Source of the DNA: Candidatus Gottesmanbacteria bacterium UBA6580
Lineage (GTDB): Bacteria; Patescibacteriota; Microgenomatia; UBA10105; UBA927
Reading direction: 5' to 3'
Assembly: GCA_002433895.1 (NCBI GenBank)
Contig: DJJA01000001.1
Coordinates: 15,438 to 79,437, forward strand
Length of the DNA: 64,000 nt
Part shown: one piece after another, positions 12,839-50,007 of the stretch
Layout of the letters: each line of letters opens with the position of its first letter
How positions within the stretch are numbered: the first letter of the stretch is position 1
Position numbers and translations under genes: made by a program
Notes under the pieces: model-generated
The model's input: only the letters and a program-made list of their open reading frames with translations
Database searches by the model: none
Told to the model about the DNA's origin: nothing

Positions 12839-12839
12839 A

Positions 12840-25772: not shown

Positions 25773-27329
25773 ATGAAGACTCTCCAAAAAATACGCTTTC
25801 CAAGCGACTTGCTCCTTCTGGGTACTCCCATACTCATCGCTATCATCACGCGGCTCTATCGGATAACGGAAACCATCCGCTTTCGGGGTGATCAAGGAAT
25901 GGACCTTATGGTTATTTGGCACATGGAACACATGGGGCACTGGCCGCTCGTGGGGCCCTTTTTGAGTCTGAGAGACTTCTACACACCACCGACATATTAC
26001 TACGTTACGTGGCTACTCTATCACATTACCCAGTCAGTAAACGGCATTGTGATCGGGTATTTTTTTATGAATATCATCTCACTCATTCTTCTTATGAAGC
26101 TCGCTTGGCACATGGGTGGAAAACAGTTGGCATGTATTGTAGGAGGACTCTTTGCCATATCAATCAACATGATTGACCACGGCAGACAATTTTGGCAACC
26201 ATTTCCCATGCAGCTGTTCATCATCATAAGCCTCCTCTTCCTTTGGCGCGCGTATGAACGCAAGAGCCTCTCATCGTTATGGCTTTTCGCGCTCAATTAT
26301 ATGATTGCTCTTTCGGTATATCCTTCTCCCATACTACTGTTGCCTTACACGGGATATCAGATCGTACGGTGGTATAAAAATGTTGGGAAGCTTCCTATAT
26401 GGCAATCGTTGCTGTTTTCTGGCGTCATGATGACGATTACTTCTGTGATAGTCTACATACCCCAAATCATTTTTGAAATTAGCCGGGGGTGGCCGTCCCT
26501 CACGCTTACGGGGTTAGTTACCGCGCGCTTCAATCTCCACACAATTATTACACTCATAAGCGAAAATATTTTTTATCTCTTTTCTTTCCACCTAGCCACC
26601 AATATTTTCTTTCCGAAAGAAGGATTTTATATCACAGCATTTGTCATAATATTATTTACCGCTATGGCAAAGTGGGGCAAACTCCCGCGAGCCGTCCGCG
26701 CATTTCTTGCCCCAGAAATACTCGCCGCAGGACTCGTATTTTTATTGCTCTATCAGCAAGATGTGCACAATCATCGCATGTGGGCATACCTCCCTTTTAT
26801 CTTTCTTATAACAGGCACAAGCATTCATCAGGCGCTTAACGCAAAAGGGATACACAAAGCACTTGCCATCACCATCCTTCTCATCTATAGCATATTAAAT
26901 CTTAGTGGGTTTTCCCTATACGCTTCCAGACACTTCGTTGATGAGACACGCGAAGCTATCTCAATTGCCCAATATATCAAACAGTCCATGAGTTCACGCG
27001 GACTTACCCAGTCCAATACCGGTTTTATTTATAAAATACCGCTAGATCCCGACAACACCTCCTACTCAATATACCGGATACTCTATTGGTTAATTGAGGA
27101 TCGCACACTCTCTATATCACTTAAGCCCGAAGGAAACGAACCTGCCTTTGAGTACAAGTTTCCAATTTATAAAAACTATATGTACATTATCTGTCAGCGC
27201 TTTGCGAGTGTCCAGGACGCTGAAGCTCACTGTATTGCACCCATAATTGGCTCCGAGCCCTACACGACGCGGGAAACGAAAAAAATCGGGAGAGCATATG
27301 TTTTCACTCTACACAATCAAACCTTTTAA
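25773..27329 (+). CDS. GT-C membrane glycosyltransferase, ArnT/PMT-like (GT39/83-type)
   Basis: About 12 TM helices. The first loop has GDQGMDLMVIWHMEHMGHWPLVGPFLSLRDFYTPPTYYY, resembling the ArnT/PMT DE...PPL.YW region. Confidence 0.7.
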   Translation: MKTLQKIRFPSDLLLLGTPILIAIITRLYRITETIRFRGDQGMDLMVIWHMEHMGHWPLVGPFLSLRDFYTPPTYYYVTWLLYHITQSVNGIVIGYFFMNIISLILLMKLAWHMGGKQLACIVGGLFAISINMIDHGRQFWQPFPMQLFIIISLLFLWRAYERKSLSSLWLFALNYMIALSVYPSPILLLPYTGYQIVRWYKNVGKLPIWQSLLFSGVMMTITSVIVYIPQIIFEISRGWPSLTLTGLVTARFNLHTIITLISENIFYLFSFHLATNIFFPKEGFYITAFVIILFTAMAKWGKLPRAVRAFLAPEILAAGLVFLLLYQQDVHNHRMWAYLPFIFLITGTSIHQALNAKGIHKALAITILLIYSILNLSGFSLYASRHFVDETREAISIAQYIKQSMSSRGLTQSNTGFIYKIPLDPDNTSYSIYRILYWLIEDRTLSISLKPEGNEPAFEYKFPIYKNYMYIICQRFASVQDAEAHCIAPIIGSEPYTTRETKKIGRAYVFTLHNQTF

Positions 27330-27340
27330 TGATCTCTCCC

Positions 27341-28039
27341 TTAAACACAAATCGTTTTACTTCGCATACCGGAACATAGGTTGATGGCAGTATGAAGGTA
27401 ACTTACTGCCATCCTCAATAATTGCGATTTGCTTTGTCCATATTGCCGGTTTTTATAACGCACCGGCACTTCCCGGATACGTAATCCGGATATTTTAGCA
27501 GCATATACCAGACGTAAATGATAATCTCCATAGCCTACATATATACGGCCGGGCTTCATACGGCGCAATACCTGTGCACGGATTGCGTAATACCCGCTGG
27601 TATTGTCCCATATCGGAAATGACAGCGCGTACCGTAAAACGGCGTTAAATATCCAACTTAGGATATAACGCGTGCGATCATGCATGCCGCCACCATGAAT
27701 AAACCGTGACCCTACAACAAGATCTGCCGTAGATAACGCACGGAGCAGTGAAGGAATATGTTCGGGATCGTGGTTTCCGTCGGCATCCATGCCGATAATA
27801 ATATCGCCTCGCGCACGCGCCACCCCTGCCCCTATGGCCGTGGCCAGACCCCGCACTTTTTTCCGCACAACAACCCGTATACTCGTGCCAAAGCGTTTTC
27901 GGACCGCATCTGCGGTGTGATCCGGACTATCATCGTCAACAACAATTATTTCGGCAGTGTAAGCTGATATACGCCTGATTGCGGCACGGATCTTCGGGAT
28001 AAGCACCATAAGATTTTCGCGTTCGTTATACGAAGGCAA
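27341..28039 (-). CDS. Polyprenol-phosphate hexosyltransferase-like GT2 (DPM1/GtrB/ArnC-like). The 5' end is uncertain.
   Basis: LPSYNERENL...EIIVVDDDSPDHT...GDIIIGMDADGNHDPEH. The track start is a TTG codon. The conserved N-terminal block (VSVILPSYNE) continues in-frame upstream, with no ATG/GTG/TTG before the upstream stop. Confidence 0.7.
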   Translation of the reverse strand: MPSYNERENLMVLIPKIRAAIRRISAYTAEIIVVDDDSPDHTADAVRKRFGTSIRVVVRKKVRGLATAIGAGVARARGDIIIGMDADGNHDPEHIPSLLRALSTADLVVGSRFIHGGGMHDRTRYILSWIFNAVLRYALSFPIWDNTSGYYAIRAQVLRRMKPGRIYVGYGDYHLRLVYAAKISGLRIREVPVRYKNRQYGQSKSQLLRMAVSYLHTAINLCSGMRSKTICV

Positions 28040-28059
28040 AATGACGGAAACACACGCTG

Positions 28060-28800
28060 TTATACTCCCCCTTTCTTCCGGGCAAGAATAAAGAGTGATG
28101 TGCCCCAGGGGTATGAAACAAACGGCAAACCCAACGCTTCCAATCGGTTAATAAACACGCCCGCGCGGTTTACTGCAGCAGACGCAGGCACCACATCAGA
28201 GCCCCGCTCTCTGCCTGGCAATACTCTATCAATGAGCCGTTTAACGGCAACCCACGGAAACAAAAGAAAAAACATATAGGTTTTGGTATGAATAGAAAAC
28301 CCCGCCGCCCGCACCTTGCGGAGAAGCGCGGGTAACATATACCGTTCTCTGCCAAAAACAGCGCGGTCATGGGGTCCCGCAAGCCACGGAAATGCGCAAT
28401 CCGTAATCACCAGCCACCCCCCGGGACGGAGCACCCGGTATGCCTCACATAACGCGCTCCTGTCGTGGATACCCTGGTGATAAAGCACATCAAAAAAACA
28501 CACTGCGTCAACACTTCGGGCAGTAAGGCCGGTACGTTCCGCTGTCCCATTCCGAAGGATTACCCCCCGTTTTTCTGCAAGTTTACGCGCCGTCTTATGG
28601 GGCTCGATACCTATGACTTTTCCATACTGGGAAAGAACATGCGCCATCCCGCCGGTACCCGCTCCAATATCGGCGATAACGCGTGGAGGCTGCCGACGCC
28701 ATACAGCACTGAGGAACACGTTTACAAATAGCCGCCGTGATACAAACCACCAATGAGACGATTCCACGTCGTACATCGCCTGGTACTCATGTTCTTCCAT
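28060..28800 (-). CDS. Class I SAM-dependent methyltransferase. Start at the internal ATG 28800; the track start is 28830.
   Basis: VIADIGAGTGGMA (motif I), LRPGGWLVITD (post-I). A start at 28800 avoids a 44-nt overlap with the upstream GT2. Confidence 0.75.
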   Translation of the reverse strand: MEEHEYQAMYDVESSHWWFVSRRLFVNVFLSAVWRRQPPRVIADIGAGTGGMAHVLSQYGKVIGIEPHKTARKLAEKRGVILRNGTAERTGLTARSVDAVCFFDVLYHQGIHDRSALCEAYRVLRPGGWLVITDCAFPWLAGPHDRAVFGRERYMLPALLRKVRAAGFSIHTKTYMFFLLFPWVAVKRLIDRVLPGRERGSDVVPASAAVNRAGVFINRLEALGLPFVSYPWGTSLFILARKKGGV

Positions 28801-29815
28801 GGATAATCCGCCCCAAAAAGGCACCAGCAAAAATAAAGCAATATAAAACGAGCCCGGTTACAAAACTCCGCATCATAAATACCCACCCTTTTTCATGGTA
28901 CACAAACAATAAAAATTTCGACGTCAGCAATACATGCATAAGTAGCGTACCGATAAATATACCCCCCATTATTTGCACCGGAAGCGTCAATTGTCCGAGC
29001 GTGCTTAATAAGGCGATAGCAGTGATACTTCCCAAAACAAGCACACCCACGCCGGAAAGCGTGGTGAGCGCCTCCTGAAGTGTCGTGGCAACCGGATCAA
29101 ACCGTTTCCGCCTCGCGTATAATTTTGTCCAATAATACGCACGGAGAAAATATTTTTTAGCAATCGGAAAAAATCCCTCAAATTCATGCCGCACCCGCAC
29201 TTGTGGTGCAAAAATAATCGCGTAACGGCGGGCAATCCGGTAAGTCAACTCAATATCTTCAACCAATGGCGCCGGATACGTTTGATCAAAACCTCCCAAA
29301 CGGTCAAATACCACCTTCTTTATTGCGGCAATTCGCGTAGAAAATAGAAAATAGTAACCACTTTTGTCACGCTCATTTATCCAATAACTCCAATCCCTGA
29401 GTGCTTTAAAATTCGGGAAAAAATCTTTTGACTTTTGCTCCTTCACCCATACACCGGTAAGTGCGACGACATCAGGGTCATCACCAAATACCTTTGCTAT
29501 TTCGTACAAGGTGTCCGGAAATACCTCCACGTCACCGTCCAAAAATACAACAAACTCACCCCGGGCTGCGGCCACCCCCCTATTTCGTGCGACCGCCGGA
29601 CCCTTATTTGTTTTTAACGAAACAATCCGTGTGCGCTTTTTTAGTTCTCTTGTTACCGGCACATTGCTTCCTGTTAACGGCTGTCTCGACCCATCATCCA
29701 CCACGACAATCTCATATGGCGGTGCCTTTTTACTTTTGCCAATGGTTGCCAATAACCTCGACAACTTTTCCGGCGCGTTGCAGTACGGAATAATGACTGA
29801 TAAATAGGGTTTCAT
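28787..29815 (-). CDS. GT2 glycosyltransferase with C-terminal transmembrane region
   Basis: LSVIIPYCNAPEKL...EIVVVDDGS...GEFVVFLDGDVE, plus three or four C-terminal TM helices. Confidence 0.75.
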   Translation of the reverse strand: MKPYLSVIIPYCNAPEKLSRLLATIGKSKKAPPYEIVVVDDGSRQPLTGSNVPVTRELKKRTRIVSLKTNKGPAVARNRGVAAARGEFVVFLDGDVEVFPDTLYEIAKVFGDDPDVVALTGVWVKEQKSKDFFPNFKALRDWSYWINERDKSGYYFLFSTRIAAIKKVVFDRLGGFDQTYPAPLVEDIELTYRIARRYAIIFAPQVRVRHEFEGFFPIAKKYFLRAYYWTKLYARRKRFDPVATTLQEALTTLSGVGVLVLGSITAIALLSTLGQLTLPVQIMGGIFIGTLLMHVLLTSKFLLFVYHEKGWVFMMRSFVTGLVLYCFIFAGAFLGRIIHGRT

Positions 29816-29831
29816 GACAAATCCCTCGGAC

Positions 29832-30974
29832 TTAAAGCGCTTTCAGTGCTTTTTGGGCAGTGGCGACAACAAAGGCAATTTCACTTTCTTTCATACCTGC
29901 GTATATAGGCATACGTACAAGCGTGGCGGCCACATCATCCGTCACTGGTAAACGGCGCTTCCCTCCTCCGAGCGTAATTCCCATCGGAGATGAATGAAGC
30001 GGGACATAATGGGTGCTCACCTCAATATCTTTTTCCCTCATTGCGGTAACAAACTTTTTCCGCATGTCCACGGATGGGAATTTTAACGCGTATATGTGCC
30101 AGTTTGGTTGCGTCATCCCTTGCGGTATAACCGGTAACTGCACCTTATCCGCAAATGATGCAAAAGATTTGGTATACTGCGATGCTATTTGATTTCTATC
30201 TTTATTTATTTTATCAATTTGATCTAGTTGTATATTAATAAGGTTTGCAAATATATCAGACAGGAAATAACTACTACCTTCTCCTACCCATTGATAGATA
30301 GATACTTTCCCCTGCAAAAATGCCTGGCGGTCAGTACCGATGGCACGGAATATTTCCAACCGTTCGGCTAACCAAGCGTCGTTGGTGACAATTGCGCCAC
30401 CCTCACCACACGCAATATTTTTGGTGCCATGAAAACTAAATGCGCCGGCTATCCCGAATGTCCCCAAGTGTTTACGTTTGTAAAACGACCCAACACAATG
30501 CGCGGCATCTTCTGCCACCCATAGTTTATGCTTCCTTGCCACATCCATGAGCGCGTCAAAATGGGAGCCTGCCATACCGGCATAATGAACTGTCATAATA
30601 CCCACGGTTTTTGAGGTAATCTTTTTTTCGACATCAGCAGGATCAAGCGAAAACGTTATGGGGTCAATATCAGCAAATACGGGTCGCGCACCCCGGATCA
30701 TGACCGCAGTCGCGGTGGATGCAAGCGTAAATGAAGGAACAATAACTTCATCGCCTTTTTTTGCTCCCACACTTGCCACTATAGCTTCCATCGCGTGCGT
30801 ACAGCTTGTGACGGGAAGCGCGGTTGCCGCTCCGGTCAGCACGGCAAACTTCTTACGCATGATTGCGCTATACGGACCGTCAGCGGTGCCTGCGCCAGTA
30901 CGCATCGCGGCGATGACGGCGTTTTCTGCTTTTTTACCCCAAAACGGTTTATGGAGCGGTATTTTCATTACCAC
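29832..30974 (-). CDS. DegT/DnrJ/EryC1/StrS-family PLP-dependent sugar aminotransferase
   Basis: FSFHGTKNIACGEGGAIVTND contains the PLP-binding Lys. AEDAAHCVGSFYKRKHLGTFG and the overall WecE/ArnB/PglE-like layout are present. Confidence 0.9.
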   Translation of the reverse strand: MVMKIPLHKPFWGKKAENAVIAAMRTGAGTADGPYSAIMRKKFAVLTGAATALPVTSCTHAMEAIVASVGAKKGDEVIVPSFTLASTATAVMIRGARPVFADIDPITFSLDPADVEKKITSKTVGIMTVHYAGMAGSHFDALMDVARKHKLWVAEDAAHCVGSFYKRKHLGTFGIAGAFSFHGTKNIACGEGGAIVTNDAWLAERLEIFRAIGTDRQAFLQGKVSIYQWVGEGSSYFLSDIFANLINIQLDQIDKINKDRNQIASQYTKSFASFADKVQLPVIPQGMTQPNWHIYALKFPSVDMRKKFVTAMREKDIEVSTHYVPLHSSPMGITLGGGKRRLPVTDDVAATLVRMPIYAGMKESEIAFVVATAQKALKAL

Positions 30975-31037
30975 AAATCATACTCAAGTGCCCACTATTT
31001 GACAAGTGACGCATGATCAGCTCAACATAAACAATAT

Positions 31038-31439
31038 ATGCCGATAAGCGCCGACCTGGAGGTCACATACAAATCCGTCAATATACCCATAACAGTATGG
31101 ATGGAAGTGCCAAGCGAAGAAATAAGAAAGCTGATGAAATGGCCTAAAGAAAAAAAGGTGCTCGCAGTGCGGGTGCCTAACACGTTTAAGGAAGGATACA
31201 TTCACTACCTTACAAAAAATAAACACGCCATGAGCCTTGGACACGAAGATTATAAAGCCACCATTACCGCGCTCACCACAAAATATCAACAATCTGCCCG
31301 GACTATCTTGGGTCAACTCGCCAAAGGCGTGCCGCTCACCCTCGATTACGCAACACCGCTCCCATATCTTGATAATACCCGGGGGCCACTCCAGGAACCT
31401 CTCATCGTGTCCAAGGGAAAGGTAAAACGGAAGAAATAA
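31038..31439 (+). CDS. Small basic hypothetical protein, antisense to the flanking minus-strand operon
   Basis: Fills a 469-bp gap between the DegT and LbH genes. Composition is protein-like and Lys-rich, with a SKGKVKRKK tail. The competing minus-strand ORF 31017..31316 is Phe/Cys/His-rich and looks like junk. Confidence 0.45.
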   Translation: MPISADLEVTYKSVNIPITVWMEVPSEEIRKLMKWPKEKKVLAVRVPNTFKEGYIHYLTKNKHAMSLGHEDYKATITALTTKYQQSARTILGQLAKGVPLTLDYATPLPYLDNTRGPLQEPLIVSKGKVKRKK

Positions 31440-31443
31440 CCTG

Positions 31444-31980
31444 CTATCGCAGCTTTTTCAGGATTTTTGCTGGTACACCAACGACAACGGTTCCTTTGGC
31501 AACATCTCTGGTAACGACCGCGCCGGCTCCCACGATGCTTCGTTCACCAACGGTTACCCCAGGCAAAATGATAGCTCCAGTACCCACATATGCCCCTCGT
31601 TTAAAAAGAACCGGTGATTCGCGGGTCGGATACACTTCCTGCAGCGGATGATCCGCAAATCCGACATTTATATGAGAAACAATATTCGTTCTGTTTGAAA
31701 TCGTCACGTCATCTTCAAGCGTCACGCCGCCCCGCACATCAACCATAACGCCATCACCCAAAAAGCACCGGTTCCCGATGGATAACCGGGAAAATCCGTA
31801 GTGATACACATTCACAAACTGCACATCAAATAACACACTATCACGGCCAATAGAAGCGCCTGCTAACCGAAGCAACCACACACGCACCGGTGGCAACGCT
31901 ATGTGTAAAAACCAGGCATACACGCCAAACAAAACAAACCGTACCGCTTTCATGAGTCCGATAGATTGGAATGCTTTCAT
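31444..31980 (-). CDS. Hexapeptide-repeat (LbH) sugar acetyltransferase (WbbJ/PglD-like)
   Basis: Left-handed beta-helix hexapeptide repeats (GAYVGTGAIILPGVTVGERSIVGAGAVVTRDV). Its start lies 1 nt after the stop of the upstream GT2. Confidence 0.8.
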   Translation of the reverse strand: MKAFQSIGLMKAVRFVLFGVYAWFLHIALPPVRVWLLRLAGASIGRDSVLFDVQFVNVYHYGFSRLSIGNRCFLGDGVMVDVRGGVTLEDDVTISNRTNIVSHINVGFADHPLQEVYPTRESPVLFKRGAYVGTGAIILPGVTVGERSIVGAGAVVTRDVAKGTVVVGVPAKILKKLR

Positions 31981-31981
31981 A

Positions 31982-32719
31982 TTATGAACTCTTGAGCCTG
32001 CCTCTCAGTGCCCATAACTGTATCATGTAATCGACAGTATCTTTGATGATATTCACTGATGAAATCTTGTCAAAACGCCGCAAAAACAATACCGGCTCCT
32101 CAGCAATGCGAAGTCCGTGGCGCATGGCGTACACCATAACTTCCGTATCCCAAAACCAACCTTTGTGCTGAACATCTTGGAGCACCGGAAGGATTTTTTT
32201 CCGGTGAAAAAATTTATATCCTGTCTCCGTATCCATCCCACCGGTACCAATGAGCTTGTTGGACAACCACTGGTATCCGCGGCTCAACACCTCCCGCACT
32301 ACCGCCCGCGGACTCGTACGGTAAAAGCGACGCCCGATGACCACGTCTGCCTGATTTTTTAGGATGCGCGACACCATTGAGGGGATATACACCGGCGACA
32401 CTTCACAATCGATATCAATATACCCGGTCACTGTACCACGGGATGCTTTCAGCCCGTCAGCCACGGTCTGGCCTCGGCCGGAATTTACTGTGTGATAGAT
32501 TGCCCGGATGTTTTTATGCGCCTTGCAGTAGTCCCGTATGAGACGTGCAGTGCCATCTTTGCTATGGTCGTCAACAAATATCATTTCGTACGAATACCGG
32601 CTGTTTTCCAACACATCCCGTATACGGGCCACACTCTCACGAAACAGCCCTTCTTCGTTATAACAAGGCAATACGATAGTTAATTGAGGGGATAAATGCT
32701 TCACTCTGTCGCTCATCAT
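31982..32719 (-). CDS. Polyprenol-phosphate hexosyltransferase-like GT2 (DPM1/GtrB-like)
   Basis: LTIVLPCYNEEGLF...EMIFVDDHSKDGT...GYIDIDCEV. Confidence 0.85.
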   Translation of the reverse strand: MMSDRVKHLSPQLTIVLPCYNEEGLFRESVARIRDVLENSRYSYEMIFVDDHSKDGTARLIRDYCKAHKNIRAIYHTVNSGRGQTVADGLKASRGTVTGYIDIDCEVSPVYIPSMVSRILKNQADVVIGRRFYRTSPRAVVREVLSRGYQWLSNKLIGTGGMDTETGYKFFHRKKILPVLQDVQHKGWFWDTEVMVYAMRHGLRIAEEPVLFLRRFDKISSVNIIKDTVDYMIQLWALRGRLKSS

Positions 32720-32753
32720 ATCAGTCGTTTATAAACGCCGCAACAACACCGTT

Positions 32754-34280
32754 TCACTTTTTTCGAACGAGCAGCCCGGTAATCCCTTTATATGGCACAA
32801 AATGTACGGATATGTACTGGCGGTCAGCCTCTGACAAAGTCCCAAGCCGTCCAAGACGCCCTTCATAAATATACTGGGTATCTGTTTGTTCAAGCGAAGC
32901 TGCAAGGCTGGGTAACGGCCGGGACAAATACGGTGCCCACTGACCAAATGGCACACAACAAACGGGATATGGATCCTTAAAATATATCGTTGACCCGACC
33001 ATATCCAAGACATACGCGTTGTATGGGATGACCGCAAGCGCCTCGGCTAATAGAGCAGCGTCTGCCTCATTGGTCAGTACCAATTTTTGATTGTGTATGT
33101 CACGTGATATCGTTATCATCCCTGATAACAAAAGAATGCTTCCGGTGATAAAAACGGCGGCACCCATACGGAACCGCCCGCACATATTCCGAACCACATC
33201 CAGTGCGTCTGCCGCATAAAACGCAACGAATACCGCGATAGGAATAAGATACTGTGCGTGACGTAACGGATAGCCATACAAAAACGTAATAATATGAGAC
33301 ATCATAGAGCAGGCAAGCAACAATTCTATCCATACTCCTTTCCTGCCATGCGCCAAAAACGGTGTAAAAAGCCGGATACTTCCCGCCATAAGCCCGATGA
33401 ACCAAACAGCATGATTTGCAATTACTGGGGGTGCCCAACCGGGCCGGCCGTAGTAGGTTGCATTGGGATAAAAAAACAAATCCGGCTGCATACCAAACAA
33501 TGTGCCTATACGGTTTACTTCAAACGGCAGGGTTCCCAATGAATACACGATTGTTCCCATAAAATTCCCGCCACCTGATACCCATATGATCCAGAGAAAG
33601 AATAACAGGAGCGGAACGGATCCCCCCACGATACACAGGGCCATAGCGCGCAACCGGGACTCTCTATGCTTCTTTTCCCAAAATGCCCATAACAGCGTAA
33701 TAATTCCGGCAACCGCCACCTGCGGCACAGACTTCGGAAGTATCAGCACAGACGCAATGTACCAAAATCCAGCCCATACCCATGGCGCTCGGCCTGTGCC
33801 ACGCATCCCATCAATCTGAAATAATAATCCCAAAAAAGTAAACACTACTGCCAAATTATCTGGCCGTATTTCCAATAGTTTATCCGCAGGCAACGGGAGA
33901 AACACAAGAAAAATCCCTACCCAAACCGCCATCCATGACCGCCGTACACGCCAAAACAGCAGCATAACAACACCCACCATTGTCACAAAAATACCAAATG
34001 CAACAACACGCCCAACGAATAACGGCATTGTTCCCTGAAAAAATAGATATATTGGCGCGAGAATATACAAAAATCCGGGCGGCACGTATAGCAAAAAATC
34101 ACGGTATGGCATGACACCGGAAAATACATTATGCGCCCAATGAAGATACGCTAATTCATCTGCGTCAAAATACCGGATGAGCGAGAGCGAAAACCTGTCG
34201 GAAAGCAATAGCACCAGTACGCCAAACGAAATGAGGCTAAAGAGCTGAGAAAGCGACACTCGAAATTGTTTTAGTTGCAT
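32754..34280 (-). CDS. GT-C membrane glycosyltransferase, ArnT/PMT-like. Start at MQLKQ; the track ORF extends to 34430.
   Basis: YFDADELAYLHWAHNVFSGVMPYRDFLLYVPPGFLY matches the GT39/83 DE-motif loop. The 34430 start would overlap the divergent gene at 34306 by 125 nt. An ATG at 34280 leaves a 25-bp divergent spacer. Confidence 0.7.
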   Translation of the reverse strand: MQLKQFRVSLSQLFSLISFGVLVLLLSDRFSLSLIRYFDADELAYLHWAHNVFSGVMPYRDFLLYVPPGFLYILAPIYLFFQGTMPLFVGRVVAFGIFVTMVGVVMLLFWRVRRSWMAVWVGIFLVFLPLPADKLLEIRPDNLAVVFTFLGLLFQIDGMRGTGRAPWVWAGFWYIASVLILPKSVPQVAVAGIITLLWAFWEKKHRESRLRAMALCIVGGSVPLLLFFLWIIWVSGGGNFMGTIVYSLGTLPFEVNRIGTLFGMQPDLFFYPNATYYGRPGWAPPVIANHAVWFIGLMAGSIRLFTPFLAHGRKGVWIELLLACSMMSHIITFLYGYPLRHAQYLIPIAVFVAFYAADALDVVRNMCGRFRMGAAVFITGSILLLSGMITISRDIHNQKLVLTNEADAALLAEALAVIPYNAYVLDMVGSTIYFKDPYPVCCVPFGQWAPYLSRPLPSLAASLEQTDTQYIYEGRLGRLGTLSEADRQYISVHFVPYKGITGLLVRKK

Positions 34281-41253: not shown

Positions 41254-41270
41254 TCTAACCTAAACCATGT

Positions 41271-42582: not shown

Positions 42583-42606
42583 CCCCCTCGTCACCCTCCC
42601 TCATTC

Positions 42607-42635: not shown

Positions 42636-42644
42636 CTCCCTCTT

Positions 42645-43322
42645 ATGTTGAAAGAGCGGTGTCTACAATCTGACGCTCTCGGACGGCAAGCAAGTGAATT
42701 TGTTGCGTGGAGTGCCGCCACCGGCAACGATCTCTCTCGCATGCGCAATGTGTCGCGTAAAAAAGCGCTTCATTTGGTGACCGAGTCCCCAAATTTCCGC
42801 CCGTTTCCTCTGGAAAAAATCCAGATACTCCACCCCCGCGACTACTATCATTATCCGGCCGTTCTTCTTGCGCGCGACCATACGGGCACAGAAACCCACA
42901 TACAATCGTTTAACATGATAACCGGAGCCAAGCAGCGCTATGCGTATATCATACAATCCGAAAAATCAGGTACTGCGGTCAGCGCGGCGATTACCCGTAT
43001 TCTTCCGCTTGAACCTTCCGGCGTTTCCATTACATTCGGAAAAAGGAGAGATCATCCCAATGCCGTACGTAATCACGGTACGAGCTGTGTCCATATTGAC
43101 CTCACTGGCAATGTGTATGCCATCGCGCCGAGATCATGGAACAAAGATACGATCGTTGATTGGGTAAGCAGCGCTCTTCATCACCTGACCCATGGCATCA
43201 GCATGCAGCGCATGCAGAATACAAGAGAGCTGTCATATTTAGGCGCAAAATTCGCTCATCCGAATAACGGCGGCAATCTGTCATTACCGTTTCCCGAACA
43301 CCCAACGCTTTTAGATAAATGA
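42645..43322 (+). CDS. Hypothetical soluble protein (start placed at internal ATG 42645)
   Basis: A consensus promoter TTGACT-17-TATAAT lies at 42607..42635, immediately upstream, implying a leaderless or near-leaderless transcript. The track start 42573 lies upstream of that promoter. Confidence 0.5.
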   Translation: MLKERCLQSDALGRQASEFVAWSAATGNDLSRMRNVSRKKALHLVTESPNFRPFPLEKIQILHPRDYYHYPAVLLARDHTGTETHIQSFNMITGAKQRYAYIIQSEKSGTAVSAAITRILPLEPSGVSITFGKRRDHPNAVRNHGTSCVHIDLTGNVYAIAPRSWNKDTIVDWVSSALHHLTHGISMQRMQNTRELSYLGAKFAHPNNGGNLSLPFPEHPTLLDK

Positions 43323-43326
43323 TACG

Positions 43327-44874
43327 ATGGTAATCGTGTACACCCTCCTTATTGCCACCATCGTTTTGCTTGCCACCATCGAAAATATCGCACCGTCGAT
43401 CATAGGATTCCTTGCAACACCACCCGATTATGTTTTCCTCGGCACGGTGCACCACCCCGGCGACTATTTTTATTACCTTTCACAATTTACCCAGGGTGAA
43501 AGCAGGTGGCTCACTACCATCGATCTTTTTACCAGCGAACAACTAACACCATCGCTCATCGGTTGGAGCAACGTACTGACCGGAAAAATGTTCTCCCTTG
43601 TGCACCTCTCGCCGGTTACGGCATATCAGATGAGTATCGTCGTACTCACTGCAGGAGTACTTACCGCGGCGTACATGCTCGCTCATACCGTCCTCCGGAG
43701 CCGTAGCGCTGCCACCATAGCACTGTATTTCTTCGCATTGTTTCACGCGTTCCCCGTCCTCCGCGACGGCAAGCCGTCATACGGTGACTATTGGAACAAT
43801 TTCGCGGTTCCCCGGGTACGTTTCGGAGGCGTACCGCACCAACTGATGCTTCATACAGCCTCCATGATACTTCTATATGGCCTTATACAATGGGTGCAGT
43901 ACAAAAAGTATTCGTGGAGAATGGGGCTGGTTATTTGCGTCGCGAGCTTTGTGCTTGCCAGCCTGCAACCGGCGCTGTGGGGTATTATCGCGGCTACAGC
44001 GGTAGCGACTGCAGCCTACCGCAAACAATCTGTCCGCACGCTTTTCATCCTGCTTTCCGCTTCGGGTGTGGCACCACTCCTTTATATAACATCGCTTTTC
44101 CGCACGTTGCCGTTTCTTCAGTTGAAGCTGTGGGAAGCTGGCGAGCAAAACGTGCTTACCCTGGAACACTTTATCCTTGCCACAGGACCCATACTGCTTC
44201 TTTCCTTATTTGCCGTGCCGTTTTTTATGACCCCAAAAACGTACAGCAGATACCTAAGTGCCGCACTCGCTTTTTTCCCTATCCTTCTATTTTTCTCGCC
44301 TATCCCTGCGTATATCGGTATATCCAACGCGCGGGTACTCTCTCCCCTCACTATCCTCCTGCTTTCGGTTATTGCCGCGGCAGGCATAGAAAGTCTCGTG
44401 GCACACAAAAAAATAATTGTACGGACAATGGGCGTTTTACTCGTCGCAATACTCTCGTTCACCTTGCTGCCCAATCATCAAAAAACAATAAAGCTCGTAA
44501 GCACATTTGACGCCAACAATGTATACCAGTATCTTCCGGCGTCGGAGTACCGCTTCTTCCGGGAAATTGGCGCAACGCACTCTTCACGTGATATATTCCT
44601 GGTCTCCCCACCGTATAACCTGGTATTTCCGGCGCTTTCCGGCAAACGAAGTTACCACGGACATCCGCTCCTCACGATCGAAGCGGAGCAAAAAGACAAA
44701 AACGCGAACATGGTGTTTACCGGGGCGTTAACCGGCCATGAGCTACGGTCTTTTCTCAGCACTACCGGGATCACCCATATAATCGCGCCACAAGAAATTG
44801 CCCACTTTGCTTCGCTCCCCTTTCTCAAACGCACAACAGCCTCAAAAACCCTGATTTTATACGTGGTCGAATAG
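43327..44874 (+). CDS. Polytopic membrane protein, paralogue C
   Basis: Shared motif PPDYVFLGTVHHPGDYFYYLSQFTQGESRWLTTIDLFTSEQ. About 13 TM helices. Confidence 0.7.
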   Translation: MVIVYTLLIATIVLLATIENIAPSIIGFLATPPDYVFLGTVHHPGDYFYYLSQFTQGESRWLTTIDLFTSEQLTPSLIGWSNVLTGKMFSLVHLSPVTAYQMSIVVLTAGVLTAAYMLAHTVLRSRSAATIALYFFALFHAFPVLRDGKPSYGDYWNNFAVPRVRFGGVPHQLMLHTASMILLYGLIQWVQYKKYSWRMGLVICVASFVLASLQPALWGIIAATAVATAAYRKQSVRTLFILLSASGVAPLLYITSLFRTLPFLQLKLWEAGEQNVLTLEHFILATGPILLLSLFAVPFFMTPKTYSRYLSAALAFFPILLFFSPIPAYIGISNARVLSPLTILLLSVIAAAGIESLVAHKKIIVRTMGVLLVAILSFTLLPNHQKTIKLVSTFDANNVYQYLPASEYRFFREIGATHSSRDIFLVSPPYNLVFPALSGKRSYHGHPLLTIEAEQKDKNANMVFTGALTGHELRSFLSTTGITHIIAPQEIAHFASLPFLKRTTASKTLILYVVE

Positions 44875-44909
44875 GCCTTTGTTGCCTACTTGATTTATAA
44901 TCCTATAGT

Positions 44910-45737
44910 ATGGTACACTTTCGTATTGAAATGACTACTGCCGAGTTTCGACCGGGACCGGACATCATAAATCCGCACGCTCCTAACTTCAGTGAGCTTC
45001 ACTATCACGTTCGCATAGACGCGATGACACCCGACGATAAACGCTACTGGCTCTCCGATCAAATCCTCAAAGAGGAACACCGGCTCCTCCGTGAACCATA
45101 CAATATGCCGCAGGTACGCGCTGAGGCAAAAATCATGTTTTTGACCGGTGGCCCCAAATCAGACGTTACCGAAGCCCGTGACTTTGACGGCAACCTTATT
45201 CATACCCGGCATTTGGATCACCCGCGACCGATGTTTGCGGAAATCCCGGAGGCATTAAGCTCCATTTCCCACTGGTTTGACATGACCATCCAAAGTAAAG
45301 AAAACAACACGCTTCCACCATCTCCGGTCGCTCCGCTTTCTGAAATAGCCGACGTGGTATACAACATTTCCCATCTTCTTACGCTCGATGAATATTTCTG
45401 GGAAGAATACAACGAATACTTAAAGCGTATCGCGGGATCGTTGGGATATGATTTGGATCAATTACTGACTATTGCGGTCTATAAATACAATTTCCGGCTG
45501 GGACAAGGAAAATCACAAAAAAATATCGGCATTGAAAACGAACTGATCAATAAAGTACTCGCAAAAACGGGACCGGATGGTAAACCATTATTCCCGGCAC
45601 CAAGCGAATCCCAATTCCAAAAAACATTTCACACTCTGGCTGAAATCCAGACGCTCTTAAACACGCGACTCGAACAACTCCGGCAGGAATACGAATGGGA
45701 AAAAAACCCGGTTCTCCCCAAAGACACCACAAAGTAA
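44910..45737 (+). CDS. Hypothetical cytoplasmic protein
   Basis: No TM segments. Acidic and helical C-terminus. An alternative start at 44931 is possible. Confidence 0.5.
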   Translation: MVHFRIEMTTAEFRPGPDIINPHAPNFSELHYHVRIDAMTPDDKRYWLSDQILKEEHRLLREPYNMPQVRAEAKIMFLTGGPKSDVTEARDFDGNLIHTRHLDHPRPMFAEIPEALSSISHWFDMTIQSKENNTLPPSPVAPLSEIADVVYNISHLLTLDEYFWEEYNEYLKRIAGSLGYDLDQLLTIAVYKYNFRLGQGKSQKNIGIENELINKVLAKTGPDGKPLFPAPSESQFQKTFHTLAEIQTLLNTRLEQLRQEYEWEKNPVLPKDTTK

Positions 45738-45772
45738 TTTCATAACGCCGCGTTTTCCCGTATGATAAGAGA

Positions 45773-47623
45773 GTGTCACACAAGACCCGATTACTGCTGT
45801 GTATTGGTCTCGCCCTGTTACTCAGGGTTATACTTATCCCTAACCCGGGATTTGAGGCGGATATCTCGTTTTGGAAATCGTGGGGGCTCGCTACCGTCGA
45901 TTATGGCGCGGTAGAAGGGATGAAACTCACCAACAATAATTACCCCACTCCGTTTACCTACACATTAGGCGCTATGGTGTGGGTATATAAGCTGTTTGCG
46001 GATCCGCATAATTTCCATGAATTCTGGAGCAATACCAATATATTGTTTTTGACCATCAGCAAAATGCTGCCTATTCTGGCGGATTTCGGCATTGCGGCCA
46101 TTATCCTGTACATCGGCAGGCACACTCACTCTACCAGCCGGCGATTTGGCTTCCCTGAAGTTAAATTATCATTCTTCCGCCTCACTTTTTACGAATTGCT
46201 TGCGGTGATGTACTTACTAAACCCCATCTCCCTCATGGACGGCGCGTGGTGGGGGCAGGTTGACTCGCTGGGCGTATGTATCTTTTTGTGTGCCGTGGTT
46301 TTGGCACTCAAAAAACAACCGATGTGGGCAGGGGTCATATTCATGCTCGCTATGATGACCAAGCTCCAAAACATCATTTACGCACCGATATTTTTCCTCT
46401 TTATATGGCAATACCTGGGCTATACCGGGCTGATAGCTGCAATTGGTGGTGCCACCCTCGGATTTTTTGGTCTGAATATAGAATTTATACTCTCCAAAAA
46501 CGCCGACCGGGTGCTTGCGTCGCTTACTGAAAATTACGATTACTTCCCATGGATGAGCCTGATGGCATACAACCTCTGGTGGATTGTGTCCGGAGCGCAA
46601 GGGCTTATAACCTCCGACAAGCTTACCGTGCTTGGCATACTCAACGCAAAAACCGTTGGACTCATGATATTTAGCGCTATGTACCTGCTTGCGGTAACCC
46701 GCCAACTGCTGGATAAAACAAAAACACAGGCGTCACCTGTCTTACAAACATTTATCGAGAGCCTCATCATCGCAAACTCGGCATTTTTTCTTTTCCAGAC
46801 GCAATCACATGACCGATACGCTTTTCCCCTCACGGTATTCCTCCTGCTGTGGACACCCTTTTTCATCACGCAAGCAGGATCGAAGTACGTCATGCTGCGG
46901 ACACGGCTACTGGGTATCGCCTATATCGTGTTTTCCGTATGTTATTTCTACAATTTGCACACTGCCCTTGTGGTGAATTACCCGCAAAACGGGCTCCCGT
47001 TGCTCTCAATGCTCACACAACCATTTTTTACCCTTTCCACCGCATACATCCAGCTCGGATTATTTTTCCTATTTTTATATGCGATCATCCATTCTTCAGC
47101 AGTGTCACGTCGTACAGCGCTCTTTGTGTTTGTCATTCTTACCTCATCACTTGTGTATCTCAATCTGCCGCTTATCCAAAAAAAGCCAATCTTCCTCACC
47201 GCCCTATCGCCTTTTATCAGTGAGCAGGCATATGGAACACGCCAGATACATAAATCCGTGCAAAGCTCATTTGGCGGCCCATACAAATGGACCCGGCTTT
47301 CTGTACAATATTTATTCTATAAGCACGGCATTGGCACGCACGCAAACTCAAAGCATGTCTTTGACATCGCGGGCAAATTTACCCGGTTTACGGTAGATTA
47401 CGGTATAGACACCGAAGCAGGCACCAAAGCATCGGCAATATTCGAAATTTACGGGGACGGGACACTACTCTTCCGGTCACAACCCATGGGGCGCTTTGAC
47501 CTTCCAAGGCATGCCGAAGTGAATATCACCGGCGTACGCCACTTATGGTTGGTAACCACAGACGCGGGAGATAACAATTATGATGATCATACCGATTGGT
47601 TAAACCCAATCCTTTGGCCATAA
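45773..47623 (+). CDS. GT-C-like membrane protein fused to a C-terminal NPCBM (novel putative carbohydrate-binding module) domain
   Basis: GTG start. About 12 TM helices. The C-terminal ~120 aa GIGTHANSKHVFDIAGKFTRFTVDYGIDTEAG...IFEIYGDGTLLF...NITGVRHLWLVTTDAGDNNYDDHTDWLNPIL match the NPCBM signature GxHAxS...F...GxDD...F.VxxDG...LxLxVTDAGDGxxxDHADWAxA. Confidence 0.75.
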   Translation: MSHKTRLLLCIGLALLLRVILIPNPGFEADISFWKSWGLATVDYGAVEGMKLTNNNYPTPFTYTLGAMVWVYKLFADPHNFHEFWSNTNILFLTISKMLPILADFGIAAIILYIGRHTHSTSRRFGFPEVKLSFFRLTFYELLAVMYLLNPISLMDGAWWGQVDSLGVCIFLCAVVLALKKQPMWAGVIFMLAMMTKLQNIIYAPIFFLFIWQYLGYTGLIAAIGGATLGFFGLNIEFILSKNADRVLASLTENYDYFPWMSLMAYNLWWIVSGAQGLITSDKLTVLGILNAKTVGLMIFSAMYLLAVTRQLLDKTKTQASPVLQTFIESLIIANSAFFLFQTQSHDRYAFPLTVFLLLWTPFFITQAGSKYVMLRTRLLGIAYIVFSVCYFYNLHTALVVNYPQNGLPLLSMLTQPFFTLSTAYIQLGLFFLFLYAIIHSSAVSRRTALFVFVILTSSLVYLNLPLIQKKPIFLTALSPFISEQAYGTRQIHKSVQSSFGGPYKWTRLSVQYLFYKHGIGTHANSKHVFDIAGKFTRFTVDYGIDTEAGTKASAIFEIYGDGTLLFRSQPMGRFDLPRHAEVNITGVRHLWLVTTDAGDNNYDDHTDWLNPILWP

Positions 47624-47676
47624 CATATGAGAATTTTTCAGCATCTGGTAAATAGCTAATAGTTAATTGTAGACAT

Positions 47677-50007
47677 ATGAAGCCTTACGAAAAAATAATC
47701 GGTCTTTGTTTGGTGTTGTTTGCCATTGGGTTTAACCTATGGATGTATCGCGCAGAGCCCACCGCGCTCACCGATCCAAACGATAACACATTCCAGTTCG
47801 CTTTGGTCGACAGAACAAACCAAATATGGTCTTATGCACAACAAAAGTGTTCTGGCATAACTGCGCCGTTTTGCATGATGTTTTACCTTACCGATCATTG
47901 GGTACCAAACTGGGCACAGGGGTACAACCTCCCGTACTACTACTCGCACCTTCCGCAAATCATCATTGTGGCGGGTTTCCGGCTCCTATCAGCAACCGGT
48001 CTGCCAATATCACTGTTTACGTATTATCACTGGGTGATTTACCTACTGCTTTCACTATTTCCCCTCTCATTATTTGTAGCGCTTCGCATCGTCGGACTAC
48101 CGATACTGACGGCAGGCATAGGAGCAATAATTGCTTCACACCTGTCTACTGACGGACTCTACGGCATCGATCCTCCATCTTTTCTTTGGCGGGGTTATGG
48201 CCTCACAAGCCAGCTCTTTGCCATGATATGGCTTCCGCTCGCACTCGCTTACGCTTTCCGGCTGTCTACCAGCAAGACAAAACAACATGATCTTTTCTTT
48301 ACCGCGATATTCCTTGGATTAACCACCGCGGGGCACTTAGGCTTGGGTATCATTGCATTTTTAAGTATCGGTATTTTAGCAATTAGCCCATCTATACAAT
48401 CCATACTCACCAATCAATGGAACAACGAAACGGCACATAACCTATTTATCGCCATCAAAAAGATGTTCATCGTTTTTGGCATTGTTGGACTCTTGCTTGG
48501 TTACTGGATCCTTCCGGTCCTGAAAGATAGCAATTATCACAACATCTCCGTCTGGGACGGCATATGGAAATTCGATTCCTTCGGATATCGCGAAGTGCTC
48601 AAAAATTTATTTAATGGCGACCTCTTTGACTTTGGGCGCTTCCCCATCCTCACCGCATTTGTATTTCTTGGTATTTTTTCTGCACTTACCTCTCCTCACT
48701 ATGCATCGTTTGCGTTTCTTTTTATGTTCTGGCTCCTCATGTATTTTGGCCGCACTACCTGGGGAGGGTTGCTCAACATTATTCCTGGTATGGATGACTT
48801 CCACATCTCGCGGTTTATTGTCGGGGTGCACATTGCCGGGCTTTTTCTTATCCCAATGGGTGCCGATTGGCTAACAAAAATAAGCACTTTATACGTTCCG
48901 CCTCGCCGTCAATTTGTTACTTTGTTATGTTGTCATTTTATTATTCTCATCGCTCTCGTTATACTCGTCTTCCCCCAAACGCTCCGGTATGCATCACACA
49001 ACGATATATTGATTTCCCGCGCCAACGAACACTACACCAACAAGGCATCAGACATCACCCTGCTACTCACCACGATCAACCACAGACTATCAGAAAAACC
49101 CGGGAGAGTGTTTGCGGGGCGCGGTGGTGGATGGGGTAAAGAATTCCGCGTCGCGGAAACCCCAATGTATATGTACCTTTCGACGTACGGCATCCCGGTT
49201 ATTCTTTGGCTCCCGGAAACATGGTCGCCGAACTCAGATACCGAACAATACTTTTCTGAAAACAAACTAGCTCACTACGCGCTCTATAACGTCCGGTATG
49301 TGGTAACCCCGACCAATCTCCCATCTGAAAATATCCAGCCGTTCTGGAAGCTCTTAGAGGCTGGAGAGACATGGAAACTCTACGAGGTAGCCACGCCCAC
49401 ATCGGGAGTGGGCGAAGCTGTATTTGGCTATATAACCACTGGCGTAAAACCAGCGATTGTCTCCAGCGATAAATCCGACTTCCGGAGCCTCATCAGACTG
49501 TGGATGCACTCTGATGCGCCAGGCAACTTTCTGTACCCTGAACTCACCTTTGACCGCGACTATCCCCGCTCCACGGGTCTACCCAACTTCCGTATGACCG
49601 ATGAAGCGACGTATAAAGTGCCGGATGGTTCGTTACACAATCTGTTTACCGAAGTGCCCAGCTATATGAGCCCACAGAGTTCACCCGGCACTACGCCGCG
49701 CATAATCAGCCAGAACAGCACGGATGATATAGAATTTAACGCGACCGTGGCAAACACCACGCGTTGTGTGTCCTGTATGATTATCCTCCGGCAAACTTTT
49801 CACCCCTCATGGCAGGCAACAATAGACGGAAAACGGGTAAAACCATTTGCGGTATTTCCGTTTTATACCGCAGTTATGATGGAAGAGCCGGGCGAACATA
49901 CGGTCACGTTTTCATACACACCAACACTCACCAAAAAATTGCTTTCCGGAGTTGGCGTCATGACGCTACTATTACTCTTTGTCATCGCGCGGAGAAAACG
50001 ACAATAA
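47677..50007 (+). CDS. Large polytopic membrane protein (GT-C/YfhO-like architecture) with C-terminal extracytoplasmic domain and terminal TM
   Basis: About 14 TM helices in the N-terminal 430 aa, then a ~300-aa soluble region and a final TM (GVGVMTLLLLFVIARRKRQ). Confidence 0.65.
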   Translation: MKPYEKIIGLCLVLFAIGFNLWMYRAEPTALTDPNDNTFQFALVDRTNQIWSYAQQKCSGITAPFCMMFYLTDHWVPNWAQGYNLPYYYSHLPQIIIVAGFRLLSATGLPISLFTYYHWVIYLLLSLFPLSLFVALRIVGLPILTAGIGAIIASHLSTDGLYGIDPPSFLWRGYGLTSQLFAMIWLPLALAYAFRLSTSKTKQHDLFFTAIFLGLTTAGHLGLGIIAFLSIGILAISPSIQSILTNQWNNETAHNLFIAIKKMFIVFGIVGLLLGYWILPVLKDSNYHNISVWDGIWKFDSFGYREVLKNLFNGDLFDFGRFPILTAFVFLGIFSALTSPHYASFAFLFMFWLLMYFGRTTWGGLLNIIPGMDDFHISRFIVGVHIAGLFLIPMGADWLTKISTLYVPPRRQFVTLLCCHFIILIALVILVFPQTLRYASHNDILISRANEHYTNKASDITLLLTTINHRLSEKPGRVFAGRGGGWGKEFRVAETPMYMYLSTYGIPVILWLPETWSPNSDTEQYFSENKLAHYALYNVRYVVTPTNLPSENIQPFWKLLEAGETWKLYEVATPTSGVGEAVFGYITTGVKPAIVSSDKSDFRSLIRLWMHSDAPGNFLYPELTFDRDYPRSTGLPNFRMTDEATYKVPDGSLHNLFTEVPSYMSPQSSPGTTPRIISQNSTDDIEFNATVANTTRCVSCMIILRQTFHPSWQATIDGKRVKPFAVFPFYTAVMMEEPGEHTVTFSYTPTLTKKLLSGVGVMTLLLLFVIARRKRQ

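Follow-up and report, generated by a model that had tools for sequence, protein, structure and literature searches.

What could engage nine large polytopic membrane proteins packed into about 25 kb of a bacterial genome, and to which family do the three of them that share an N-terminal loop motif belong? These questions are raised by a 64,000-nucleotide stretch of the genome of Candidatus Gottesmanbacteria bacterium UBA6580 (contig DJJA01000001.1), hereafter the window, whose positions are used as coordinates throughout, each gene being named by its lower coordinate. An earlier interpretation made from the letters alone (the sequence-only reading) had listed the nine open reading frames (ORFs), proposed for them a multi-step extracytoplasmic glycosylation system and left the shared motif without a family. 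The ORF list of the window reproduces every one of these coordinates, and a crude hydropathy count finds 8–14 hydrophobic segments in each of the nine proteins. Here we place the three motif-bearing proteins in what appears to be a divergent family of GT-C glycosyltransferases within a conserved gene cluster. With somewhat better than even confidence, we hold that this cluster acts on the outer face of the cytoplasmic membrane with sugars linked to lipid phosphate, the stepwise building or decoration of a cell-surface glycan being the favoured role.

Three paralogues without a named family

The three proteins, A (34306–35919, plus strand), B (39580–41253, minus strand) and C (43327–44874, plus strand), contain the motif strings verbatim as they had been quoted, DYFLYVSHILQG at 34447–34482, DYNFYLSRIRQG at 41068–41103 and DYFYYLSQFTQG at 43462–43497, each confirmed by translation. 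The resemblance extends over the whole length of the proteins. In within-window BLASTP comparisons, A matches C at E 1.6e-36 (28% identity over 483 amino acids, aa), B matches A at E 1e-7, and B matches C at E 5e-5 in two separate stretches, one at the N-terminal motif and one in the C-terminal domain; jackhmmer searches started from any of the three retrieve the other two at E < 1e-129. Such similarity is well above that expected by chance or from a common transmembrane (TM) composition, which had been named as the outcome that would undo the grouping, so that, as judged from these alignments, A, B and C are true paralogues.

Searches against family databases return nothing for A, B and C in Pfam or NCBIfam, nothing in Pfam at E <= 1 for 36 family members, PMT_2 (PF13231) included, and no match of the family profile among all PDB sequences at E <= 10; only structure prediction and profile-profile comparison yielded an assignment. 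In hhalign comparisons, the A/B/C family matches the PMT_2 family of the neighbouring gene 35885 at 93% (E 2.8e-7, 269 columns) and the YfhO-type proteins at 59%, and one more distant member bears the UniRef name 'Glycosyltransferase RgtA/B/C/D-like domain-containing protein'.

Predicted fold, topology and active site

The AlphaFold2 (AF2) model was built for C from a 36-sequence alignment, A and B being placed in the family by sequence, and has a predicted local distance difference test score (pLDDT) of 95.2 and a predicted template modelling score (pTM) of 0.93. When this model is compared with the PDB by Foldseek, the top 27 matches are all GT-C enzymes (E <= 6e-4, probability 1.00, TM-scores (TMq) 0.47–0.62), among them STT3 (E 5.5e-9, TMq up to 0.62), AglB, DPY19, PglB, AftD and ArnT, at 9–12% identity. 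Past the 27th, the list has E > 0.1 and TM-scores of about 0.1 and consists mostly of transporters and unrelated proteins, with one partial match to the GT-C complex Pmt1-Pmt2; the first transporter stands at E 0.14 and TM-score 0.12. Between the two outcomes previously considered for these proteins, glycosyltransferase and transporter, modelled C thus falls with the former. Because of the Foldseek matches, the hhalign match to the family of 35885 and the UniRef name, we assign the three paralogues to the GT-C_A fold class, as a divergent family that has no name and appears to be remotely allied to the PMT_2/ArnT group.

The model of C has 11 TM helices whose alternation puts the N-terminus inside and the C-terminus outside the membrane. 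With the alternation started from a one-residue N-terminus, the short loops (RS, QYKKYS, RKQSV, MTPKT, AHKK) all fall inside and each contains Lys or Arg, in agreement with the positive-inside rule, whereas the long loops and a C-terminal alpha/beta domain of about 125 aa lie outside. By DSSP, TM1 spans residues 2–29 and TM2 residues 96–123, and the first outer loop between them contains two helices, 44–56 and 80–90, that correspond to the juxtamembrane helices JM1 and JM2 defined after TM1 in the work on AftB (PMC12041299) and characteristic of GT-C_A enzymes. The shared motif forms the first of these helices, JM1, and the check on topology that the sequence-only reading had proposed thus places the conserved loop on the extracytoplasmic side.

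Residue conservation was counted over 69 full-length relatives from 32 fetched loci, each taken with 10 kb on either side (L001–L032, L001 being Gottesmanbacteria UBA5942). D46, G86, R165 and R336 are invariant (69 of 69), followed by Y100 (68), H171 (67), Y50 and G57 (66 each) and S52 (65). D46, which is also invariant in a further alignment (A2), is the third residue of helix 44–56. An essential Asp at the tip of JM1 is found in all GT-C_A enzymes, and AftB combines it with 11 TM helices, JM1 and JM2, a C-terminal periplasmic cap domain and two Arg residues that stabilise the donor phosphate (PMC12041299), a layout that the model of C shares. By position, D46 is the predicted catalytic residue of the motif, and R165 and R336 are predicted to hold the phosphate of the donor. 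The fold and the outward-facing predicted active site are much more secure than any assignment of the acceptor.

Conservation of the cluster and spread of the family

In the relatives, the gene order A, PMT_2-family gene, YfhO-family gene (minus strand), B (minus strand), cupin gene, 41923, 42573 where present, C, 44910, GT87–CBM51 gene, second YfhO-related gene and PIG-L gene is kept in about 13 species. The block so defined runs from 34306 to 50845 (about 16.5 kb), is fully collinear in L001, and shows protein identities of roughly 40–97%; conservation is lower upstream of it, in 25773–34280. A, B and C recur jointly in other species as three orthologue groups, with orthologues of A in L001, L007–L009, L012, L013 and L032, and more distant Gottesmanbacteria loci retain B and C together with extra divergent paralogues and 32754-type genes. 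The earlier description of the region as an extreme local expansion is therefore misleading: the nine genes fall into four or more sequence families that are remote from one another, the three paralogues represent old orthologue groups, and synteny of the block extends across species. As far as comparison of sequences and gene order can tell, we are dealing with a conserved pathway cluster and not with a recent burst of duplication. Given that A, B and C are old and separately conserved, they should differ in linkage or acceptor, as EmbA/B/C and AftA–D do. The GC content is even along the window (0.44–0.54), and nothing flags the region as foreign.

The family is large. An exhaustive HMMER search of 1.84 billion 50%-identity cluster representatives yields 5157 at E <= 1e-3 and 1097 at E <= 1e-30. 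B is the most widely conserved of the three, with 470 homologues in a word-indexed database, none of which contains a Pfam domain. Several ENA and JGI metagenomes contain an exact copy of the B-type protein, the longest of the contigs concerned exceeding 1 Mb. Named matches come exclusively from Gottesmanbacteria, Woesebacteria, Microgenomates or the 'Patescibacteria group'.

A separate observation concerns the GTDB records titled 'uncultured Gammaproteobacteria' that carry relatives of the family (L003, L006–L008, L010, L012, L013, L016, L018, L021, L024 and L028). Where enough flank is available, the neighbouring genes are like those of Gottesmanbacteria and Woesebacteria loci, and the names on these records of metagenome-assembled genomes look wrong.

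The other six membrane proteins

The remaining six proteins comprise three that are PMT_2-like (one weakly so), two that are YfhO-like and one GT87/ALG6-like protein with a carbohydrate-binding module (CBM). The clearest PMT_2-family member is 35885 (35885–37564, plus strand, 559 aa; Pfam PMT_2 E 1.9e-10, 41.6 bits against a cut-off of 26.1), which has syntenic orthologues. Gene 32754 (32754–34280, minus strand, 508 aa) has no Pfam match of its own, but 8 of its 14 homologues match PMT_2 (best E 1.8e-7), its family aligns with that of 35885 (hhalign 87%, E 3.7e-6), and its first-loop motif 'FDADE' belongs to a pattern, FDxDE, in which D39, D41 and E42 are invariant among the homologues. The mechanical ORF of this gene reaches 34430; the start at 34280 (Met51) is preferred because it removes an antisense overlap with A and aligns the N-termini of 13 homologues. 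For 25773 (25773–27329, plus strand, 518 aa, polytopic), the Pfam PMT_2 match (E 7e-4, 20.3 bits against the cut-off of 26.1) is below threshold; there is no PDB sequence match and no homologue in the 32 loci, and the gene lies outside the conserved block. Its PMT_2-like assignment is the weakest of the nine. Thus, the description of both 25773 and 32754 as ArnT/PMT-like proteins with a DE-loop holds for 32754, through its homologues and the invariant FDxDE, whereas for 25773 it rests on a sub-threshold match.

Among the other three, 37533 (37533–39596, minus strand, 687 aa) belongs to the YfhO family as had been supposed (PF09586, E 1.1e-15, 57.6 bits against a gathering score of 28.5), with a C-terminus that resembles PgfM1/PgfM2 of NCBIfam. 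Gene 45773 (45773–47623, plus strand, 616 aa) combines a GT87/ALG6-like GT-C core (GT87 E 0.0027; among 13 homologues, six match GT87 and two Alg6_Alg8), in which 'FEAD' is invariant in loop 1, with a C-terminal CBM51 (Pfam NPCBM E 5e-30) whose profile matches the CBM51 structures 2vmg and 7js4. These matches bear out the GT-C-like character suggested for 35885 and 45773. The last protein, 47677 (47677–50007, plus strand, 776 aa), has no Pfam match of its own. Its family aligns with that of 37533 when the two alignments are independent (hhalign 96%, E 1.9e-9, 90 columns), its C-terminus matches 37533 by BLASTP (E 2e-4), and jackhmmer started from 37533 reaches members of its family, so that it is probably related to the YfhO family, short of formal membership. 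A first hhalign comparison of these two families (100%, E 7e-105) was discounted as inflated by shared members. No meaningful match came from single-sequence PDB searches with 25773, 35885 or 37533. With nine candidates, the GT-C component of a three-component glycosylation system is present in the region.

Donor-side and other genes of the cluster

Interleaved with the membrane proteins are genes that could make their donors. Two minus-strand genes encode family 2 glycosyltransferases (GT2) without TM helices, 27341 (27341–28039, 232 aa; Pfam Glycos_transf_2 E 1e-26) and 31982 (31982–32719, 245 aa; Pfam GT2 E 3e-27). Their best NCBIfam matches are to polyprenol-phosphate sugar synthases, ArnC, followed by Dol-P-hexose transferase (Dol-P, dolichyl phosphate), AglJ, PpgS and PgfS, for the former, and PgfS, followed by PpgS, AglJ and ArnC, for the latter, in line with their earlier description as polyprenol-phosphate hexosyltransferase-like, although all these matches are below the equivalog cut-offs.

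Between them, also on the minus strand, lie genes for an S-adenosylmethionine (SAM)-dependent methyltransferase (28060–28830; Pfam Methyltransf_11 E 2e-15); a 342-aa GT2 with C-terminal hydrophobic segments (28787–29815, TM region at about aa 252–335; Pfam GT2 E 5e-26, best NCBIfam matches EpsD and MftF-like); a WecE-like dTDP-4-amino-4,6-dideoxyhexose aminotransferase (29832–30974; Pfam DegT E 1.6e-89, NCBIfam PRK11706 365.6 bits against a cut-off of 375); and a hexapeptide-repeat acetyltransferase with an N-terminal hydrophobic segment (31444–31980; Pfam Hexapep, NCBIfam WcaF-family E 1.7e-20). Within the block, the plus-strand gene 41271 (41271–41858) encodes an RmlC-like cupin, a putative nucleotide-sugar epimerase or isomerase (Pfam dTDP_sugar_isom E 4e-13; PDB RmlC homologues from E 1.3e-6) with 80–92% identity over most species that have the block, and 49979 (49979–50845, plus strand) encodes a PIG-L family de-N-acetylase (Pfam E 5e-26) whose position is identical in L001, L003, L005, L008, L009 and L032. 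A 3-acetamido-3,6-dideoxyhexose (FdtA/FdtB/FdtC) pathway was considered and rejected because the aminotransferase is WecE-like, that is, a 4-aminotransferase, and the cupin matches RmlC, not FdtA.

Some relatives have donor-side genes inside the block. In L004 and L006, genes for a DegT aminotransferase and a 229-aa GT2 separate the cupin gene from the 41923-like gene, immediately ahead of the C-type GT-C, an arrangement that resembles an ArnB/ArnC/ArnT module; in L005, a 232-aa GT2 occupies the same place. In L004 and L005, Pfam recognises a methyltransferase in the slot that separates the YfhO-type gene from the B-type gene, and weak BLAST matches (25–31% identity) suggest one in the same slot in L006, L007 and L019.

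Two further plus-strand genes of the block have no assigned function. The most conserved gene of all is 44910 (44910–45737), for a 275-aa soluble protein without Pfam, NCBIfam or PDB match: it is 97% identical in L001, 65–88% in most other species with the block and 42% in L007, the corresponding range for the C-type GT-C being 42–47%. Gene 42573 (42573–43322; 249 aa, no Pfam or NCBIfam match) is poorly conserved, with homologues only in L001, L008 and L011.

Separately, three loci (L020:6055–6429, L021:2580–2954 and L028:9494–9868) contain a conserved 124-aa ORF with four hydrophobic segments between a 32754-type GT-C gene and a member of the DYxxYLS family. In size and topology, it is like the lipid-sugar flippases of the SMR/ArnE-F/GtrA type and is a lead for such a candidate; tblastn detects no counterpart of it in the window, and it has no PDB match.

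A proposed pathway and its acceptor

We propose that the cluster encodes a glycosylation pathway of Gottesmanbacteria and other Microgenomates that would work on the outer face of the cytoplasmic membrane with single sugars linked to lipid phosphate. Nucleotide sugars, probably of the 4-amino-4,6-dideoxyhexose type, would be tailored in the cytoplasm by the cupin, the aminotransferase, the acetyltransferase, the methyltransferase and the PIG-L deacetylase; the short GT2s of the ArnC/PpgS/PgfS type would load them on polyprenol phosphate; the lipid-linked sugars would be flipped across the membrane; and the nine GT-C-fold transferases, of at least four sequence families, would each add one sugar to an extracytoplasmic acceptor. 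The paralogy, the GT-C fold, the outward position of the conserved loop and the polyprenol-phosphate-synthase-like GT2s together lend support to the multi-step extracytoplasmic system that the sequence-only reading had proposed.

For the acceptor, we favour a cell-surface glycan, by analogy with the logic of mycobacterial arabinan assembly. Nine distinct GT-Cs exceed what modification of a protein with single sugars would need, so that their number and diversity point to a glycan, and the CBM51 domain of 45773 and two Wzy_C proteins nearby agree with this. Several observations weigh against the proposal. The GT2 matches are all far below the NCBIfam equivalog cut-offs, so that the lipid acceptor is only putative; neither Pfam scans of the ORFs nor a scan for small multi-TM ORFs found a flippase of the GtrA, SMR/ArnE-F, MATE or Wzx type in the window; and a Thr/Pro-rich stalk protein encoded directly upstream of C, together with nearby proteins that have PT-rich linkers and pilins, favours a protein acceptor.

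The stalk protein, 41923 (41923–42582, plus strand), is a single-pass membrane protein with a conserved 'VLPGGxTYLGPTPT' segment, a Thr/Pro-rich stalk and a folded ectodomain of about 150 aa, and is a candidate acceptor or accessory subunit. In its AF2 model (pLDDT 84 overall), pLDDT falls below 50 at residues 37–46 and 48–62, where the stalk is disordered; the ectodomain has only a weak PsbP/DUF1795-like similarity (Foldseek E 0.017, TM 0.41), from which no function is deduced. The same enzymes and donors could thus serve Ser/Thr O-glycosylation of disordered Thr/Pro-rich stalks, those of 41923, 10111, the pilin 12840 and the giant proteins of the window, which we regard as the lesser possibility but one to be taken seriously. 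In its favour are the placement of the 41923 gene, which in many loci immediately precedes the C-type gene, the PT-rich linkers in 10111–10671 and in the pilin 12840–13562, the two YfhO-type GT-Cs, one with a PgfM1/PgfM2-like C-terminus, and PgfS as the best match of the GT2 31982. There is also precedent in the streptococcal GtrB/PgtC2 and PgfS/PgfM1 systems, where YfhO-type GT-Cs glycosylate Ser/Thr-rich intrinsically disordered regions (PMC12041528). Nine distinct GT-Cs with a glycan-binding domain among them suggest, however, the addition of sugar to sugar, and 41923 itself has a stalk of variable sequence and is absent from many more distant loci that still hold several members of the family.

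A more specific form of the glycan proposal can be offered only tentatively, and we think it rather improbable as a whole: the block may be an assembly line for an as yet unknown amino-deoxy-sugar heteroglycan of the cell envelope, built one sugar at a time from lipid-phosphate donors, for the most part outside the membrane, with A, B and C as the core polymerising enzymes, possibly in a hetero-oligomer, and 44910 and 41923 as new components of the pathway. If so, it would be the counterpart, in the candidate phyla radiation (CPR), of mycobacterial arabinogalactan and lipoarabinomannan (LAM) synthesis.

That A, B and C are instead oligosaccharyltransferases, which would transfer a glycan en bloc from polyprenol diphosphate to protein like STT3, PglB or AglB, is suggested by these very enzymes being the best Foldseek matches of modelled C, and the Leloir glycosyltransferases of the window (GT2, GT4 and Alg13/14-like) with the two Wzy_C proteins could build oligosaccharides linked to undecaprenyl diphosphate (Und-PP). 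The WWDYG-type motif (W[WY]D[YWF]G) is, however, absent from all 69 family members, which makes this role unlikely despite the structural ranking. Moreover, the C-terminal outer domain of C is small, the profile search against the PDB found no oligosaccharyltransferase chain either, the nearest sequence relatives are PMT_2-type enzymes that use monophosphate donors, and an ArnB/ArnC-like module for single-sugar donors stands beside the genes in relatives, so that we consider this role very unlikely. Finally, transporters or structural membrane proteins with a merely structural motif, a notion open to proteins without Pfam, NCBIfam or PDB sequence matches, are hardly credible in view of the distance between the first transporter and the 27 GT-C enzymes in the Foldseek list, the outward position of one invariant Asp and two invariant Arg, on the side that bears the active sites of GT-C enzymes, and the setting of the genes among sugar-activating ones.

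Comparison with known systems

The outer-face pathway that we favour belongs to a mechanism class that is already known, that of GT-C enzymes fed by lipid-phosphate sugars, as in the three-component systems, the Arn pathway, mycobacterial arabinan synthesis and the streptococcal Pgf system. The mycobacterial set (EmbA/EmbB/EmbC, AftA-D, PimE) is similar in that several different GT-Cs, the paralogue trio EmbCAB among them, work outside the membrane and add single sugars taken from polyprenol-phosphate donors, and CBMs are fused to some members as in 45773. However, the present host is a CPR bacterium, the C-terminal domain of the trio is much smaller than that of Emb or AftD, no sequence similarity is detectable (the PDB profile search with the trio family came back empty), and the donor genes are those for GT2s, an aminotransferase and a cupin, with neither a DPPR synthase nor a DprE-type gene among them.

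With ArnB/ArnC/ArnT and Rhizobium RgtA-D, the cluster shares a DegT-family aminotransferase, a GT2 that would load an amino sugar on polyprenol phosphate and a PMT_2-clan GT-C. The components are contiguous with a C-type paralogue in L004 and L006, ArnC is the best NCBIfam match of 27341, and ArnT is among the structural matches of C. The aminotransferase, however, is WecE-like and not ArnB (366 against 223 bits), ArnC has TM helices at its C-terminus that the GT2s lack, the window yielded no ArnE/F, and none of the three paralogues matches PMT_2 directly. CPR bacteria are generally considered to have no outer membrane, so that lipid A is presumably absent.

The three-component systems (GtrA/GtrB/Gtr*; GT136) likewise pair a lipid-phosphate sugar synthase with a GT-C that acts after export, and in the GT136 prototype a CBM is fused to the GT-C (PMC11127046). 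They differ from the present cluster in having one GT-C instead of nine, a flippase, which was not found in the window, and a GtrB-type synthase in place of short, soluble-type GT2s. To the streptococcal Pgf and GtrB/PgtC2 systems the likeness lies in the YfhO-family GT-Cs (37533 and probably 47677), the PgfS-like GT2 31982 and the nearby membrane proteins with Ser/Thr/Pro-rich disordered extracytoplasmic stalks. Nevertheless, the PgfM1/PgfM2 matches reach about 28 bits against equivalog cut-offs of 1400–1500, the PgfS match 67 against 500, and the three paralogues are not YfhO-type, as the hhalign value given above indicates. STT3, PglB and AglB are the best structural matches of the TM core of C (E 5.5e-9 to 1e-5, TMq 0.52–0.62); the trio differs from them in its lack of WWDYG, its small outer domain, its 9–12% identity and its single-sugar donor context.

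Surroundings of the cluster

Some features of the gene models and flanks are recorded here as observations. The starts of the divergent gene pairs at 41253/41271 and 34280/34306 are merely 17 bp and 25 bp apart, with identical spacing in L001, so that the promoters must be within coding sequence unless some of the start codons, for example the TTG at 41271, have been set wrongly; the public call of the cupin gene at this position has 183 aa compared with 195 aa here.

Upstream of the cluster, 15662–20730 contains further glycan genes: GT2 genes at 15662 and 18734, a GT4 gene at 19609, an Alg14-like and Alg13-like pair at 16531 and 17101, and a radical SAM/SPASM enzyme gene at 17724. The two Wzy_C proteins, polytopic and of the O-antigen ligase/polymerase type, are outside the cluster, at 13632–15665 (plus strand) and 21580–23040 (minus strand). 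The former, a 677-aa protein of the O-antigen ligase type, is divergent from three type IV pilin-like genes with the N_methyl motif (11745–13562, minus strand), one of which carries a PGTTPTPSLTPTP linker, and the arrangement recalls the PilO/PglL pilin O-oligosaccharyltransferases.

At the start of the window, 148–3624 (plus strand) encodes an 1158-aa protein without a Pfam match, followed by a 2126-aa protein (3627–10007, plus strand) with four LamG (Laminin_G_3) domains, a GH130-like segment and a Rha78A-type immunoglobulin domain. Proline-rich segments also occur in two small membrane proteins: in 10111–10671 (plus strand), a TM helix precedes TPPPTPTPTPTK and a beta-rich domain, and 23706–24506 (plus strand) is a leucine-rich-repeat protein with an N-terminal PPPPPATLTSPVSTATP stretch. 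Downstream of the block, a giant minus-strand ORF (50827–63999) of at least 4390 aa continues past the end of the window. It contains a weak methyltransferase-like region (aa 1004–1107) and, close to the C-terminus, an HExxH motif (HEVMH). In L001, too, PIG-L is followed by a giant gene, whose product is 83% identical at the C-terminus; those in the same position in L008, L009 and L012 show weak similarity.

Implications

The locus is a real and coherent system that contains a new family inside a known enzyme class. The novelty lies in a large GT-C family, as yet unnamed, whose JM1 helix bears the distinctive sequence DYxxYLSxxxQG, and in the fixed association of this family, in CPR bacteria, with GT-Cs of four other types; a literature search found no paper on GT-C enzymes in Gottesmanbacteria or other CPR bacteria. 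The advance would be a new family and a new pathway and not a new principle, given that the enzymology of GT-Cs and lipid-linked donors is established elsewhere. With more than 5000 clusters, a confident model and three predicted active-site residues, the family of A, B and C offers a concrete handle on the system.

The CPR/Patescibacteria have tiny genomes, most of their lineages are without pure cultures, and their surface mediates attachment to the host; to our knowledge, the chemistry of this surface is essentially unknown. About 25 kb of such a genome is given here to nine predicted outward-facing glycosyltransferases and enzymes that would make their donors, and the retention of the gene order of the 16.5-kb block in about 13 species argues for an elaborate surface glycan or glycoprotein coat under strong selection.

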